This document shows positions 18,122-23,545 of a stretch of 64,000 nt of DNA, in pieces. The position numbers and the translations under genes are program-made. The first letter of the stretch is position 1. Each line of letters begins with the position of its first letter. The stretch is from Escherichia coli (GTDB lineage: Bacteria; Pseudomonadota; Gammaproteobacteria; Enterobacterales; Enterobacteriaceae), in assembly GCF_013122565.1 (NCBI RefSeq), contig NZ_CP053258.1. One strand, given 5' to 3'. Below the pieces are notes generated by a model that was given only the letters and a program-made list of their open reading frames with translations, did not search any database and was not told the DNA's origin.

Positions 18122-20191
18122 ATGTCTGAGAAAACTTTTCTGGTGGAAATCGGCACTGAAGAGCTGCCACCAAAAGCACTGCGCAGCCTGGCAGAGTCCT
18201 TTGCTGCGAACTTTACTGCGGAGCTGGATAACGCCGGCCTCGCACACGGCACCGTTCAATGGTTTGCTGCTCCGCGTCGTCTGGCGCTGAAAGTAGCTAA
18301 CCTGGCGGAAGCGCAACCGGATCGTGAAATCGAAAAACGCGGCCCGGCGATTGCCCAGGCGTTCGACGCTGAAGGCAAACCGAGCAAAGCGGCAGAAGGT
18401 TGGGCGCGTGGTTGCGGTATTACCGTTGACCAGGCTGAGCGTCTGACTACCGATAAAGGCGAATGGCTGCTGTATCGCGCCCATGTGAAGGGCGAAAGCA
18501 CTGAAGCACTGCTGCCGAATATGGTTGCGACTTCGCTGGCGAAGCTGCCGATCCCGAAACTGATGCGTTGGGGCGCAAGCGACGTGCACTTCGTGCGTCC
18601 GGTGCACACCGTGACCCTGCTGCTGGGCGACAAAGTCATTCCGGCAACCATTCTGGGCATTCAGTCCGATCGCGTGATTCGCGGCCACCGCTTTATGGGC
18701 GAGCCGGAATTCACCATCGATAACGCCGATCAGTATCCGGAAATTCTGCGTGAGCGCGGGAAAGTCATCGCCGATTACGAAGAACGTAAGGCGAAGATTA
18801 AAGCCGATGCCGAAGAAGCAGCACGGAAGATTGGCGGTAACGCTGACTTAAGCGAAAGTCTGCTGGAAGAAGTGGCTTCGCTGGTGGAGTGGCCGGTTGT
18901 GCTGACCGCAAAATTCGAAGAGAAATTCCTCGCGGTGCCGTCTGAAGCGCTGGTTTACACCATGAAAGGTGACCAGAAATACTTCCCGGTGTATGCGAAC
19001 GATGGCAAACTGCTGCCGAACTTCATCTTCGTTGCCAACATCGAATCGAAAGATCCGCAGCAAATTATCTCTGGTAACGAGAAAGTCGTTCGTCCACGTC
19101 TGGCGGATGCCGAGTTCTTCTTCAATACCGACCGTAAAAAACGTCTGGAAGATAACCTGCCGCGCCTGCAAACCGTGCTGTTCCAGCAACAGCTGGGTAC
19201 GCTGCGTGACAAAACTGACCGCATCCAGGCGCTGGCTGGCTGGATTGCTGAACAGATTGGCGCTGACGTTAACCACGCAACCCGTGCGGGCCTGCTGTCT
19301 AAGTGTGACCTGATGACCAACATGGTCTTCGAGTTCACCGACACCCAAGGCGTTATGGGGATGCACTACGCGCGTCACGATGGCGAAGCGGAAGATGTCG
19401 CGGTGGCGCTGAATGAGCAGTATCAGCCGCGCTTTGCCGGTGATGACCTGCCGTCCAACCCGGTAGCTTGTGCGCTGGCGATTGCTGATAAGATGGATAC
19501 TCTGGCGGGTATCTTCGGTATCGGTCAGCATCCGAAAGGCGACAAAGACCCGTTTGCGTTGCGTCGTGCCGCACTTGGCGTACTGCGTATTATCGTTGAG
19601 AAGAACCTCAACCTTGATCTGCAAACGCTGACCGAAGAAGCAGTGCGTCTGTATGGCGATAAGCTGACTAATGCCAACGTGGTTGATGATGTTATCGACT
19701 TTATGCTCGGTCGCTTCCGCGCCTGGTATCAGGACGAAGGTTACACCGTTGATACCATCCAGGCGGTACTGGCGCGTCGTCCGACTCGTCCGGCTGATTT
19801 CGATGCCCGTATGAAAGCGGTATCGCACTTCCGTACCCTGGAAGCAGCTGCAGCACTGGCGGCGGCGAACAAACGTGTATCTAACATCCTGGCGAAATCT
19901 GACGAAGTGCTGAGCGATCGCGTGAATGCCTCTACTCTGAAAGAGCCAGAAGAAATTAAACTGGCGATGCAGGTTGTGGTGCTACGTGACAAGCTGGAGC
20001 CGTACTTTGCGGAAGGTCGTTACCAGGATGCGCTGGTCGAACTGGCAGAGCTGCGTGAGCCGGTTGATGCTTTCTTCGATAAAGTGATGGTCATGGTTGA
20101 TGACAAAGAATTGCGAATCAACCGTCTTACCATGCTGGAGAAACTGCGCGAATTATTCCTGCGCGTTGCAGATATTTCGCTGTTGCAGTAA
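18122..20191 (+). CDS. glyS: glycine--tRNA ligase beta subunit
   Basis: 689-aa ORF matching GlyS; 9 nt after glyQ. Confidence 0.95.
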
Positions 20192-20206
20192 TCGATAAGT
20201 AATGGA

Positions 20207-20241
20207 AAAACCGACATTCATTTTGGGTGTCGGTTTTTTTT
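20207..20241 (+). terminator. glyQS rho-independent terminator
   Basis: Hairpin aaccgacattcattttgggtgtcggtt followed by an 8-T run. Confidence 0.8.
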
Positions 20242-20259
20242 AATCTTAAGGAATGAGAT

Positions 20260-20619
20260 TTGGCAAAGTTACGAAAGATAGTGGTGGCTGGTCGCACCTG
20301 GTTTTGGGTTTATCGTTACTACTATGCAGATGAGCGAGATTGTTATTTAAGGATAATAAGCGAAGATAAAAAAGCACAGTTTGTAATCTATTTCAGAACT
20401 CCTACTTACCATTACGGTTGTCACCCATTAAATGATGGCCTGCCAGCTTTATACAATAATGTAAAAATCAATATTAATTTGAATCAACCTCGCTTTGTGG
20501 CTCAGTTACTGACTTATGTGTTGGAGAATATTCTTCAAGGTACACCATCAGATGTAATCGAGTACGAGAACGGTAATGAGATGTTACAGCAGCTTGGGTA
20601 TGAGTTTGATTATAAATAA
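20260..20619 (+). CDS. hypothetical protein (orphan ORF, TTG start, no recognisable domain)
   Basis: 119-codon ORF in AT-rich DNA; taaggaa SD 6 nt before TTG at 20260; no in-frame ATG until codon 108; Tyr/Asn/Lys-rich. Confidence 0.35.
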   Translation: MAKLRKIVVAGRTWFWVYRYYYADERDCYLRIISEDKKAQFVIYFRTPTYHYGCHPLNDGLPALYNNVKININLNQPRFVAQLLTYVLENILQGTPSDVIEYENGNEMLQQLGYEFDYK

Positions 20620-20729
20620 TAAAATCCTCATGCCCCATAAATCCTGGTTAATACGATTGTGTTTAATAATCACCTGTTGAATATAATATTATTTATCTAT
20701 TCATTAAGTGAAATTTTTTTTCGGAATTT

Positions 20730-20847
20730 ATCAACAAGAGTGAAATCAGAATTTACGCTAGAATAGCTGCGGGTGCTTGAGACTGTTTGTCTCAGGTATT
20801 CACCGAAAGGCAGACAGAGAAAAGCCCCACCTGACTATAAATCAAAG
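20730..20847 (+). promoter_or_regulatory. hok-type promoter and 5' leader, truncated by IS150
   Basis: -10 tagaat at 20759-20764; leader gggtgcttgagactgtttgtctcagg resembles the 5' end of plasmid R1 hok mRNA; IS150 interrupts it at 20848. Confidence 0.45.
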
Positions 20848-20894
20848 TGTACTGCACCCATTTTGTTGGACGATGAAATGGAATAGCCCCTGAT

Positions 20895-21416
20895 ATGTCA
20901 AAGCCAAAATACCCTTTTGAAAAGCGCCTTGAAGTCGTGAATCACTACTTCACTACTGATGATGGTTACAGGATCATCTCGGCACGTTTTGGTGTCCCCC
21001 GAACCCAGGTCAGGACATGGGTTGCCCTCTATGAAAAACATGGAGAAAAAGGTTTAATTCCCAAACCTAAAGGTGTTAGTGCTGATCCAGAGTTGCGTAT
21101 TAAGGTCGTGAAAGCTGTGATCGAGCAGCACATGTCCCTTAATCAGGCTGCTGCTCACTTTATGCTTGCTGGTAGTGGTTCTGTAGCCAGGTGGCTGAAG
21201 GTTTATGAAGAGCGCGGAGAAGCTGGTTTACGCGCGCTCAAGATTGGCACCAAAAGAAACATTGCAATATCAGTTGATCCAGAAAAAGCGGCATCAGCAT
21301 TGGAGCTGTCAAAAGACCGACGCATTGAGGATCTTGAAAGGCAAGTTCGATTTCTTGAAACGCGGCTTGTGTATCTAAAAAAGCTGAAAGCCTTAGCTCA
21401 TCCCACGAAAAAGTGA
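20895..21416 (+). CDS. insJ: IS150 OrfA (InsJ), HTH transposase subunit
   Basis: 173-aa ORF matching IS150 InsJ; A AAA AAG slippery heptamer at 21377-21383 near its 3' end. Confidence 0.95.
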   Translation: MSKPKYPFEKRLEVVNHYFTTDDGYRIISARFGVPRTQVRTWVALYEKHGEKGLIPKPKGVSADPELRIKVVKAVIEQHMSLNQAAAHFMLAGSGSVARWLKVYEERGEAGLRALKIGTKRNIAISVDPEKAASALELSKDRRIEDLERQVRFLETRLVYLKKLKALAHPTKK

Positions 21417-22264
21417 AAGTACTCAACGAGCTAAGGCAGTTTTATCCTCTTGATGAGCTTCTCAGGGCTGCGGAGATACCGCGCAGTACGTTTTATTACC
21501 ATCTAAAGGCTCTCAGCAAGCCTGACAAGTATGCGGACGTTAAAAAGCGTATTGGTGAGATTTATCATGAGAATAGAGGCCGATACGGATACCGTAGGGT
21601 AACGCTGTCTCTTCATCGAGAAGGGAAACAGATTAACCATAAAGCTGTTCAGCGCCTGATGGGAACCCTCTCACTTAAGGCAGCGATTAAGGTCAAGCGA
21701 TACCGCTCTTACAGAGGAGAGGTAGGGCAAACCGCCCCCAATGTTCTCCAAAGAGATTTCAAGGCTACGCGGCCAAACGAGAAGTGGGTTACCGATGTTA
21801 CTGAATTTGCAGTCAATGGGCGCAAGCTGTATTTGTCTCCAGTAATAGATCTCTTCAACAATGAAGTTATTTCTTACAGCCTTTCGGAAAGACCTGTGAT
21901 GAACATGGTTGAGAATATGCTCGATCAGGCATTCAAAAAGCTTAATCCTCACGAGCATCCTGTTCTGCACTCTGACCAGGGATGGCAGTATCGTATGAGA
22001 AGATATCAAAATATCCTTAAAGAACATGGTATTAAACAAAGCATGTCCAGAAAAGGCAATTGTCTGGATAATGCTGTGGTGGAGTGTTTCTTTGGAACCT
22101 TAAAGTCGGAGTGTTTTTATCTTGATGAGTTCAGTAATATAAGCGAACTGAAGGATGCTGTTACGGAATATATTGAATACTACAACAGAAGAAGAATTAG
22201 CCTGAAATTAAAAGGTCTGACTCCAATTGAATATCGGAATCAGACCTATATGCCTCGTGTTTAA
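21413..22264 (+). CDS. insK: IS150 OrfB (InsK), DDE transposase catalytic domain
   Basis: 283-aa ORF in the -1 frame relative to insJ, overlapping by 4 nt; expressed as OrfAB fusion by -1 frameshifting. Confidence 0.95.
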
Positions 22265-22366
22265 CTGTCCAACTTTTTGGGGTCAGTACAAAGTGAGGCT
22301 GCCTCTATGCTTCAACAACATAAGGTTAGCCTCTTACTCGTTGGAAATCAACACAGGAGGCTGGGA

Positions 22367-22520
22367 ATGCCGCAGAAATACGGATTACTATTCGTTAATA
22401 GTGATTTGTTTCACGCTTTTATTTTTCACCTGGATGATAAGAGATTCACTGTGTGAATTGCATATTAAACAGGAGAGTTATGAGCTGGCGGCGTTTTTAG
22501 CCTGCAAATTGAAAGAGTAA
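22367..22520 (+). pseudogene. hokA: hokA toxin gene, apparently frameshifted
   Basis: ATG at 22367 behind aggagg SD gives MPQKY (HokA N-terminus), but the HokA body SLIVICFTLLFFTWMIRDSLCELHIKQESYELAAFLACKLKE lies in another frame; one extra T near 22391 relative to the sequence implied by the 50-aa HokA. Confidence 0.6.
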
Positions 22521-22526
22521 GAGTCT

Positions 22527-22555
22527 TCGGCGGGAAATTATTCCCGCCTTTCTTA
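22527..22555 (+). terminator. hok 3' stem-loop (fbi/terminator-like)
   Basis: Hairpin ggcgggaaattattcccgcc followed by tttctt, just after the hokA stop. Confidence 0.5.
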
Positions 22556-22679: not shown

Positions 22680-23051
22680 ATGAATAAACTGCTTTTACTG
22701 TTGATAATGCTTTATCAACGACATCTTTCTCCTCGCAAAGGATACCGCTGTGCTTACAGTGTGTTGTACCAAACGCAGGGATGTTCGGGAGCAGTCAAAG
22801 AGATTATTCAACAGAAAGGTGTTATTGCAGGCTGGGGCGATATACGTCAGCGTTTTGCAGATTGCCGACTTGCGGCAAAGACAATCAGGCAGAAGCAACA
22901 CCTGAACGAGGTAATACGTAAAAAGAAGAATAATGATTGTGATTGTTCCGGGTGTGATGGTGCGGTCTGTCGTGATTGCGACATTCCGGTGCCGGATCTG
23001 GATTGTTCCTGGGACTGTTCTTCTCTACATTTAAAGCGGTTTTTCCAATAA
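22680..23051 (+). CDS. YidD-like (haemolytic-domain family) small protein with Cys-rich C-terminal region
   Basis: 123-aa ORF, ggag SD 4-9 nt upstream; YQRHLSP, GVIAGWG and DIPVPD motifs parallel YidD YQRLISP / GVIKGSW / DDPVPP; 7 Cys in the last 40 residues. Confidence 0.5.
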   Translation: MNKLLLLLIMLYQRHLSPRKGYRCAYSVLYQTQGCSGAVKEIIQQKGVIAGWGDIRQRFADCRLAAKTIRQKQHLNEVIRKKKNNDCDCSGCDGAVCRDCDIPVPDLDCSWDCSSLHLKRFFQ

Positions 23052-23080
23052 AAAAATCCCCGCCAAATGGCAGGGATCTT
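23049..23080 (-). terminator. cspA rho-independent terminator (probably bidirectional)
   Basis: Hairpin atccccgccaaatggcagggat flanked by A-run on + strand and T-run on - strand; matches the cspA terminator as I recall it. Confidence 0.7.
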
Positions 23081-23104
23081 AGATTCTGTGCTTTTAAGCA
23101 GAGA

Positions 23105-23317
23105 TTACAGGCTGGTTACGTTACCAGCTGCCGGGCCTTTAGCGCCGCTTTCGATGGTGAAGGACACTTTCTGACCTTCGTCCAGAGATTTGTAACCATC
23201 GTTCTGGATAGCAGAGAAGTGTACAAACACGTCTTTAGAGCCATCGTCAGGAGTGATGAAGCCGAAGCCTTTGTCAGCGTTGAACCATTTTACGATACCA
23301 GTCATTTTACCGGACAT
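23105..23317 (-). CDS. cspA: major cold-shock protein CspA
   Basis: 70-aa [73 protein letters not shown], exact CspA. Confidence 0.97.
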
Positions 23318-23476
23318 AGTGTATTACCTTTAATAATTAATTGTGCCTTTCGGCGATATGGCGTGCTTTACAGATTTTTGAAGCGTTAAAGGAAATGCAC
23401 TACGAGGGGTATCAACGATAACTCTTGAAGAGGACTTGCCTTACTACACTGCTTTAATGGTCTGTACGTCAAACCG
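23318..23476 (-). promoter_or_regulatory. cspA long 5' UTR (cold box / RNA thermosensor)
   Basis: Reverse complement begins acggtttgacgtacagacc..., the recalled 5' end of the ~159-nt cspA leader. Confidence 0.7.
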
Positions 23477-23545
23477 TTGATGTGCATTAAGCCACGCATT
23501 GGCGGGTGATGCAACAATTATTTTTCATATTTATGATTAATCGGT
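23477..23545 (-). promoter_or_regulatory. cspA promoter with AT-rich UP element
   Basis: On minus strand ttgcat (-35) and gcttaatg (-10 region) preceded by ataaatatgaaaaataattg. Confidence 0.55.

Follow-up and report, generated by a model that had tools for sequence, protein, structure and literature searches.

An IS150 insertion in the hokA leader of an Escherichia coli-like genome and the reuse of its insertion site

A stretch of 64,000 nucleotides (nt) from an Escherichia coli-like genome (contig NZ_CP053258.1; the whole stretch is referred to below as the window) carries a complete copy of the insertion sequence (IS) IS150 inside the mRNA leader of hokA, in the chromosomal hokA/sokA type I toxin-antitoxin locus. 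Our analysis indicates that this is very probably an ordinary, old insertion that has been inherited vertically. The configuration is common, annotated and of a known kind, with the same allele annotated in hundreds of RefSeq genomes; taken alone, the window matters little, documenting a dead toxin-antitoxin locus with a resident and apparently intact IS. A preliminary description of the window recognized the element and its position in the leader; it missed three points, namely a frameshift in hokA, the fact that the allele is not that of K-12, and the reuse of the insertion site as an IS150 hot spot.

IS150 occupies positions 20848..22290 (plus strand), with its left inverted repeat at 20848-20871 and its right inverted repeat at 22267-22290, and is equal in length (1443 base pairs [bp]) to the IS150 of K-12 MG1655, from which it differs by 13 substitutions and no insertions or deletions. 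The element starts with TGTACTGCACCC and ends with GGGGTCAGTACA; the imperfect terminal repeats typical of IS150 (TGTACTG at the start, GTTGGAC at the end) are present at both ends, and the inverted repeats TGTACTGCACCC...GTTGGAC and TGTACTGACCCC...GTTGGAC are unbroken. Differences from K-12 are confined to element positions 45 (the first) to 1342 (the last), so that the initial 44 nt and the final 101 nt are identical and both inverted repeats are untouched; the description of the element as complete, with both ends intact, thus stands. It is the sole IS150 copy in the window.

The element is flanked by AAG at 20845..20847 on the left and AAG at 22291..22293 on the right, the latter followed immediately by TGAGGCT; the direct repeats had been reported at these coordinates, and the triplets are identical. 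A 3-nt repeat alone has a chance of 1 in 64 of arising by coincidence. Site classes were counted with junction-spanning sequence queries against 5426 complete RefSeq genomes of E. coli, the empty-site query consisting of the left and right flanks joined with one AAG. The reconstructed empty site (ATCAAAGTGAGGC) aligns unbroken in strain LF82 and in 2803 of the 5426 genomes. This comparison with an empty-site allele, which the preliminary description had proposed, shows a simple insertion that duplicated 3 bp and removed nothing from the flanks, as had been claimed. The AAG repeats are a true target duplication, of the short (3-4 bp) kind that is a hallmark of IS150 (IS3 family, IS150 group), and nothing was found that contradicts the structural reading of the insertion. 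IS3-family elements transpose by a copy-out/paste-in mechanism via a circle, the fused OrfAB protein being the transposase; IS150 would have moved here through such a circular intermediate and may have integrated by a 3-bp staggered cut at AAG, immediately 5′ of TGAGGCT.

The hokA mRNA is predicted to start at about 20771 (GGGTGCTTGAG), the start of the match to Rfam family RF01794; this family, despite its name ‘sok’, models the hok-sense leader and extends from the 5′ end of the mRNA as far as the hok AUG. A predicted −10 element (TAGAAT, 20759..20764, plus strand) lies 6 nt upstream and is found in all aligned hokA alleles. The first 77 nt of the leader (20771..20847, plus strand), comprising the first long hairpin (the tac region) and hairpin 2 according to RF01794 and the empty-site alignment, match the family with 86.1 bits (E 6e-19), and homology stops at the IS junction. 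The 3′ part of the leader resumes at 22294..22366 (plus strand), as placed by RF01794 and the alignment, with the mokA Shine-Dalgarno sequence GAGG at 22295-22298 and the mokA ATG at 22307, in frame with hokA (ATG at 22367). A second RF01794 match at 22291-22369 scores 38.3 bits, under the gathering score because half of the model is present. The uninterrupted leader of LF82 gives a single match of 120.2 bits; in the window the model is broken after position ∼82, just 5′ of the conserved GaGGC. IS150 thus splits the hokA leader after nt 77, and the promoter and 5′ hairpin are now 1.4 kilobases (kb) from mokA and hokA. The split match bears out the earlier placement of the insertion in the hok leader, with the promoter parted from mok and hok.

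Downstream of the insertion hokA is a pseudogene (22367..22520, plus strand). Judged against five intact alleles, including those of LF82, K-12, FAM21845, and THO-015, a 1-nt insertion near 22390 (CTATTCG versus CT-TTCT) shifts the frame after codon 8; the resulting product of 29 amino acids (aa) ends at a new stop codon (22454-22456) well before the original one (22518-22520) and falls short of the ∼50 aa of a Hok reading frame. The identical hokA allele in strain VE-T9 is marked ‘frameshifted’ by RefSeq. With both the IS150 insertion and an independent 1-nt insertion in hokA, no Hok toxin can be made, and the locus is dead twice over. The 3′ terminator hairpin of hokA (GGCGGGAAATTATTCCCGCC followed by TTTCTT; 22529..22548, plus strand), detected in a terminator scan, is kept in all alleles. 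An open reading frame (ORF) of 97 aa (22227-22520) begins at a TTG inside the right end of IS150, and the frameshift in hokA lets it continue in frame through HokA residues 9-50, which form the membrane and C-terminal portions; lacking an ATG and any evident ribosome-binding site, it is probably silent.

The antisense gene sokA is interrupted as well, as judged by homology. In MG1655, the annotated sokC, sokB, and sokE RNAs are 57-60 nt long and start 44-49 nt upstream of the hok AUG, and an alignment of the four leaders places sokA on the minus strand from ∼22316 (its 5′ end) across the insertion point to ∼20814. By homology to sokB, sokC, and sokE, the 5′ part consists of 26 nt (GTTGAAGCATAGAGGCAGCCTCACTT; 22291..22316, minus strand), complementary to the ribosome-binding site and start codon of mokA, and the 3′ remnant of 34 nt including one AAG copy (20814..20847, minus strand); the latter placement also draws on the K-12 remnant and on the predicted fold. 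The remnant corresponds to the 3′ arm of the Sok terminator stem and the U tract CTTTGATTTATAGTCAGGTGGGGCTTTTCTCTGT; a reconstructed SokA of 57 nt folds as a stem-loop followed by UUUUCUCUGU, with IS150 sitting in the 5′ arm of the stem. K-12 has an annotated sokA remnant of 35 nt on the side of its IS150 that faces glyS, which is consistent with this placement. The predicted sokA promoter (22323..22351, minus strand), assigned by homology, consists of a −35 element TTGATT (22351..22346), a 17-nt spacer, and a −10 element TAACCT (22328..22323); the same TTGnnn-17-TAnnnT arrangement occurs at the same place upstream of the annotated sokB and sokE, and the −10 element of sokC is poor. The evidence supports a sokA split 26 nt from its predicted start, in which the contiguous gene of promoter, recognition region, and terminator is gone; the probable disruption of sok put forward in the preliminary description is supported by this homology and agrees with the K-12 remnant.

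Two considerations weigh against this part of the reconstruction. The boundaries of sokA and both promoters were assigned by homology and consensus rather than by transcript mapping: the hokA and sokA promoters rest on homology and the conserved TTGnnn-17-TAnnnT spacing only, neither was reported by a generic promoter scan, and the predicted sokA promoter lies below the threshold of that scan. In addition, a generic terminator scan found 2 sites versus 1.9 expected from shuffled sequences, that is, no enrichment. One other arrangement, in which the antisense strand of leader hairpin 3 would supply the Sok terminator and sokA would lie intact just to the right of the IS, was rejected by the alignment with sokB, sokC, and sokE, which puts the Sok 3′ end ∼34 nt to the left of the junction.

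The rearranged locus suggests several altered transcripts. The weak hokA promoter would now read in the sense direction into insJ, and the predicted sokA promoter, which is intact, would read antisense into the right end of IS150. A 15-bp stem with a T-rich antisense tail (22213..22247, minus strand), identified by the terminator scan and by folding of the predicted SokA′-IS150 chimera, could end transcripts entering from the predicted sokA promoter; the product may be a chimeric antisense RNA of ∼110 nt that ends at the IS stem and keeps the Sok recognition region. An outward-facing promoter has been described at the 3′ end of IS150 (PMC11101190) and would here read a 5′-truncated mokA-hokA message unable to yield toxin.

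The age of the insertion is indicated by comparison with related alleles. The insertion point, orientation, and AAG duplication of the window are shared by ST131 strain 4993 and strains 50579417, VE-T9, LHM10-1, and 23S01245-7; VE-T9 and LHM10-1 also have the flank allele of the window and its hokA frameshift. The IS150 copies of the window and VE-T9 have eight variant positions in common when compared with the K-12-type sequence, and seven positions distinguish one copy from the other. In VE-T9 (L001, 2683-2685) the left duplication reads AAA and the right AAG, the mark of a point mutation after insertion, and the flanks are 98.4% identical to those of the window over 2.4 kb. Shared IS variants, a mutated duplication, and similar flank divergence together fit one old insertion inherited by both lineages rather than a recent hop. 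In contrast, ST131 strain 4993 and strain 50579417 combine an intact hokA with an IS150 of K-12-type sequence, which shows 13 differences from that of the window; their insertions are probably separate events from that of the window, with gene conversion as an alternative.

IS150 and its flanks might also have reached this lineage by homologous recombination from another E. coli lineage, rather than by transposition, a route that we consider unlikely though a serious possibility. The same insertion and right-flank allele with the hokA frameshift recur in VE-T9, LHM10-1, and others, and the region is mosaic, since no complete E. coli genome contains a relative of the segment just upstream (20192-20662). 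With 7 of 1443 positions different from VE-T9, the IS has diverged to an extent similar to the flanks, which is compatible with co-inheritance by either route, and recombination concerns the route of the allele into the genome, not its identity. The window as a whole is 98.5-98.7% identical to E. coli over 20 kb; none of the 5426 complete E. coli genomes matches it at 99% or above.

IS150 has entered hokA at this point repeatedly. Among the complete genomes, 2803 have an empty site, 875 the right junction of the window (same site and orientation), 94 an IS150 in reverse orientation with an intact flank, and 1654 a K-12-type junction; the last figure may include the 94 reverse-orientation genomes (the query pieces being joined), and the K-12-type count is accordingly given as 1560-1654. 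IS150-bearing hokA alleles thus make up ∼48% of complete E. coli genomes. Four configurations were distinguished: the orientation of the window with an AAG duplication (VE-T9, ST131 strain 4993, 50579417, and 23S01245-7), the same orientation with a 5-bp AAGTG duplication (FAM21845 and AW1.7), the reverse orientation with an AAG duplication (THO-015), and the reverse orientation with a deletion (the K-12 type, in K-12 and E. coli B). There are at least four such configurations and none is derivable from another, so that at least four independent events fall within the same 2-5 bp. With about half of E. coli carrying IS150 at one spot of a few bases, in at least four configurations, the insertion has little value as a phylogenetic marker unless its orientation and junctions are determined.

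Other hok loci are hit at the homologous position. The junction search also found IS150 in the same orientation ∼100 bp upstream of several other hok genes, namely hokB, two hokE-locus alleles, and two plasmid hok genes. In hokB the element lies at the homologous leader position with its duplication directly 5′ of a shared motif (AAC/CGAGGC, the slash separating the duplicated bases from the flank beyond); the homologous position is likewise used in a hokE-locus allele (ACCC/GAGGC) and in the plasmid hok loci (CCA/CGAGGC and ACC/CGAGGC). One non-hok site reads GAA/TGAGGCT. For a broader sample, public metagenome contigs were scanned with the last 38 nt of the E. coli-type IS150, giving 69 matches and 43 distinct right flanks. 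Twenty of the 43 run into an ORF of the Hok family (called by hmmsearch, E 3e-31 to 5e-7), and 19 of these 20 have YGRGGC 3-5 nt from the IS tip; at clearly non-hok sites the hexamer occurs at the same offset in 10 of 20, usually followed by T, against a background in the same flanks of 0.0008 per position (binomial P ∼1e-21 for the non-hok set). The window (AAG/TGAGGCT) fits the pattern NNN-YGAGGC(T) exactly. The motif is carried by 32 of the 43 right-end flanks, and insertion therefore appears biased to the orientation seen in the window.

On balance, these data favor IS150 as a sequence-directed inserter that places its right end 3-5 nt 5′ of YGAGGC(T), with hok/sok leaders as preferred landing pads and the parallel hits in hokA, hokB, hokC, and hokE of natural isolates and experimentally evolved lines largely a mutational hot spot; we regard this as probable, with some reserve. 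Hok/sok leaders on chromosomes and plasmids conserve the hexamer, which serves there both as the ribosome-binding site of mok and as the base of the Sok terminator stem, and would be preferred targets for that reason. No description of a YGAGGC target motif for IS150 was found in the searchable literature, which lacked the key IS150 papers of 1988 and 2002, and the motif may already be known. A likeness between the motif and the subterminal CACGAGGCAT of IS150 itself was set aside as possibly due to chance, about three such hexamers being expected per element.

The recurrence at hokA could instead reflect a selective benefit of hok/sok knockout rather than target choice by the transposase, an interpretation that we think unlikely. 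Insertions in hok/sok have been read as adaptive inactivation by other authors (PMC5419217; bioRxiv 10.1101/527788), and the frequency of IS150-bearing alleles agrees with it. Selection for loss of function, however, would scatter hits over the locus of ∼400 bp, whereas the independent events are confined to a few adjacent bases; hokB, hokE, and plasmid hok are hit at the corresponding position; YGRGGC also flanks IS150 at non-hok sites; and the trg/mokB hot spot arises in mutation-accumulation lines, under minimal selection (PMC5289635). Selection and targeting are compatible, and selection may still aid the spread of IS150 alleles. If motif-driven targeting is correct, it would explain the hok/sok hot spots by mutational bias rather than by selection, and it would be wrong to take recurrent IS150 insertions in hok/sok as a sign of selection in evolution experiments.

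IS150 copies in paralogous hok loci are also substrates for large rearrangements. A metagenome contig (L202) carries an IS150 with a left flank of the hokB/hokE type (atttctatcaac), a right flank of the hokA type (AAGTGAGGCCCC), and unmatched duplication triplets; it looks like the product of recombination between IS150 copies of two different hok loci. In the hok leader of R1-type plasmids (metagenome contigs L145, L159, and L183, and L010), IS150 is found at three points, CCA/CGAGGC, TTC/ATTAACC, and CGCT/TGAGGCT, the last at the extreme 5′ end of the hok mRNA. In Buttiauxella agrestis (L093, 5613-5761) the right flank of an IS150 reads ACC/CGAGGC inside a sok-like leader (RF01794, 49 bits), so the association of IS150 with sok leaders exists outside Escherichia. 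A scan of species representatives with the 24-nt right end of IS150 was dominated by Streptococcus, Alistipes, and Clostridia, with two enteric loci only. The exact 24-nt right end is present in many assemblies of Streptococcus, Alistipes/Rikenellaceae, and Clostridia, mostly at contig ends, indicating multi-copy elements with the same terminus; the flanks in these organisms are T-rich at +10 to +16 and often resemble intrinsic terminators.

The IS150 of the window appears equipped for transposition. insJ (orfA; 20895..21416, plus strand) encodes a helix-turn-helix (HTH) DNA-binding protein of 173 aa (Pfam HTH_28, E 4e-23) that differs from its K-12 counterpart by one residue (V159 in the window, M159 in K-12), and insK (orfB; 21413..22264, plus strand) encodes a 283-aa protein with a DDE integrase-type catalytic domain (Pfam rve, E 3e-29; rve_2, E 4e-22; HTH_21). 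A programmed −1 frameshift signal (21377..21437, plus strand) comprises a heptamer (21377-21383), a 6-nt spacer, and a 10-bp stem (21390-21399/21428-21437). The heptamer AAAAAAG is phased cuA AAA AAG in the insJ frame, which confirms the slippery site noted in the preliminary description, and folding of 21377-21445 yields the perfect 10-bp stem (−20.4 kcal/mol). A −1 slip reconstructs an OrfAB fusion of 456 aa (20895..22264, plus strand) that is free of stop codons, carries an N-terminal HTH and a C-terminal DDE (rve) domain, and has the length of the RefSeq-annotated ‘IS3-like element IS150 family transposase, programmed frameshift’. Candidate DDE residues are present in the transposase. Every sequence feature required for transposition is intact; the probable transposition competence put forward in the preliminary description is an inference from these features.

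Some observations count against activity. The transposase differs from that of K-12 by three residues (V159, G221, and R432 in the window); R432, where all other copies compared have S, is a lineage-specific change; and a G replaces the A found in K-12 3 nt upstream of the insJ ATG. These changes, the age of the element (orthologous copies have diverged, and the VE-T9 duplication is mutated), and its single occurrence in 64 kb would suit a decayed, immobile relic despite its intact look. Such a relic nevertheless seems quite improbable to us: there are no stops or indels, 44 nt at the left end and 101 nt at the right are identical to those of active IS150, the frameshift signal is flawless, the candidate DDE residues are in place, and only 3 of the 12 coding differences from K-12 alter an amino acid.

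The neighborhood is that expected of hokA. The order is glyS (ending at 20191), the hokA locus, a YidD-like ORF, and cspA on the opposite strand, and the order glyS-hokA-cspA is the same in annotated genomes. The cspA gene with its full-length thermoregulator leader (23050-23478, minus strand; RF01766, 481 bits) is the expected neighbor. Between hokA and cspA an ORF of 123 aa (22680-23051) resembles YidD (Pfam YidD, E 7.6e-6, just under the cut-off); it is present in VE-T9, 50579417, and others, where it is annotated yidD, and absent from K-12 and LF82. The segment 20192-20662, an AT-rich stretch of ∼470 bp that separates the glyS stop codon from the hokA promoter region, matches none of the 5426 complete E. 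coli genomes. It contains an ORF of 119 aa (20260-20619) that has no Pfam match and whose exact protein is found on one public contig only.

The nearest well-known relative is the hokA/sokA::IS150 of K-12 MG1655 (insJ b3557, insK b3558), in which the same element lies in the same glyS-cspA locus and sokA is likewise interrupted; the K-12 interruption of sokA is credited to Pedersen and Gerdes 1999, as cited in PMC11551753. That the window holds simply this allele read on the other strand, as the shared glyS, hokA, and cspA neighborhood, the same element, and a left junction no more than 2 nt away might suggest, is refuted by orientation and junction sequences, and it is the sole alternative excluded outright. 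In K-12 the IS150 is reversed relative to hokA; its glyS-side junction lies 2 nt further along, after ATCAAAGTT; its hokA-side junction is ∼40 bp nearer hokA, a deletion of ∼40 bp having removed the mokA start and the 5′ part of sokA from the leader, whereas nothing is deleted in the window; it lacks a target duplication, whereas the window has the AAG pair; its hokA ORF is intact, whereas that of the window is frameshifted; the two IS copies differ at the 13 positions noted above; and none of the complete E. coli genomes matches the window at 100%. The K-12-type junction is also the more common, in ∼1560-1654 complete genomes versus 875 for the window type. A class of IS150 insertion accompanied by deletion and lacking a duplication (‘IS150-del’) has been described (bioRxiv 10.1101/2024.06.02.596822; PMC11708052); the K-12/B-type hokA allele belongs to it, and the window represents the contrasting canonical class, with a 3-bp duplication and nothing deleted.

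Beyond hokA, the insertion resembles a series of hot spots in paralogous loci, namely trg/mokB (sokB), hokC/nhaA, hokE, and plasmid hok/sok, several of which appeared under laboratory conditions in the course of a few thousand generations. The trg-mokB hot spot accounted for ten occurrences in mutation-accumulation lines, in a study with 50 IS150-mediated mutations (PMC5289635); recurrent IS150 insertions beside hokC, hokE, and mokB were found in an evolution experiment (PMC5419217); sokE::IS150 is known from XL1-Blue and from more than 400 natural isolates (PMC11551753); and in E. coli and Klebsiella, homologues of hok are located close to hot spots of mobile elements (bioRxiv 10.1101/527788).

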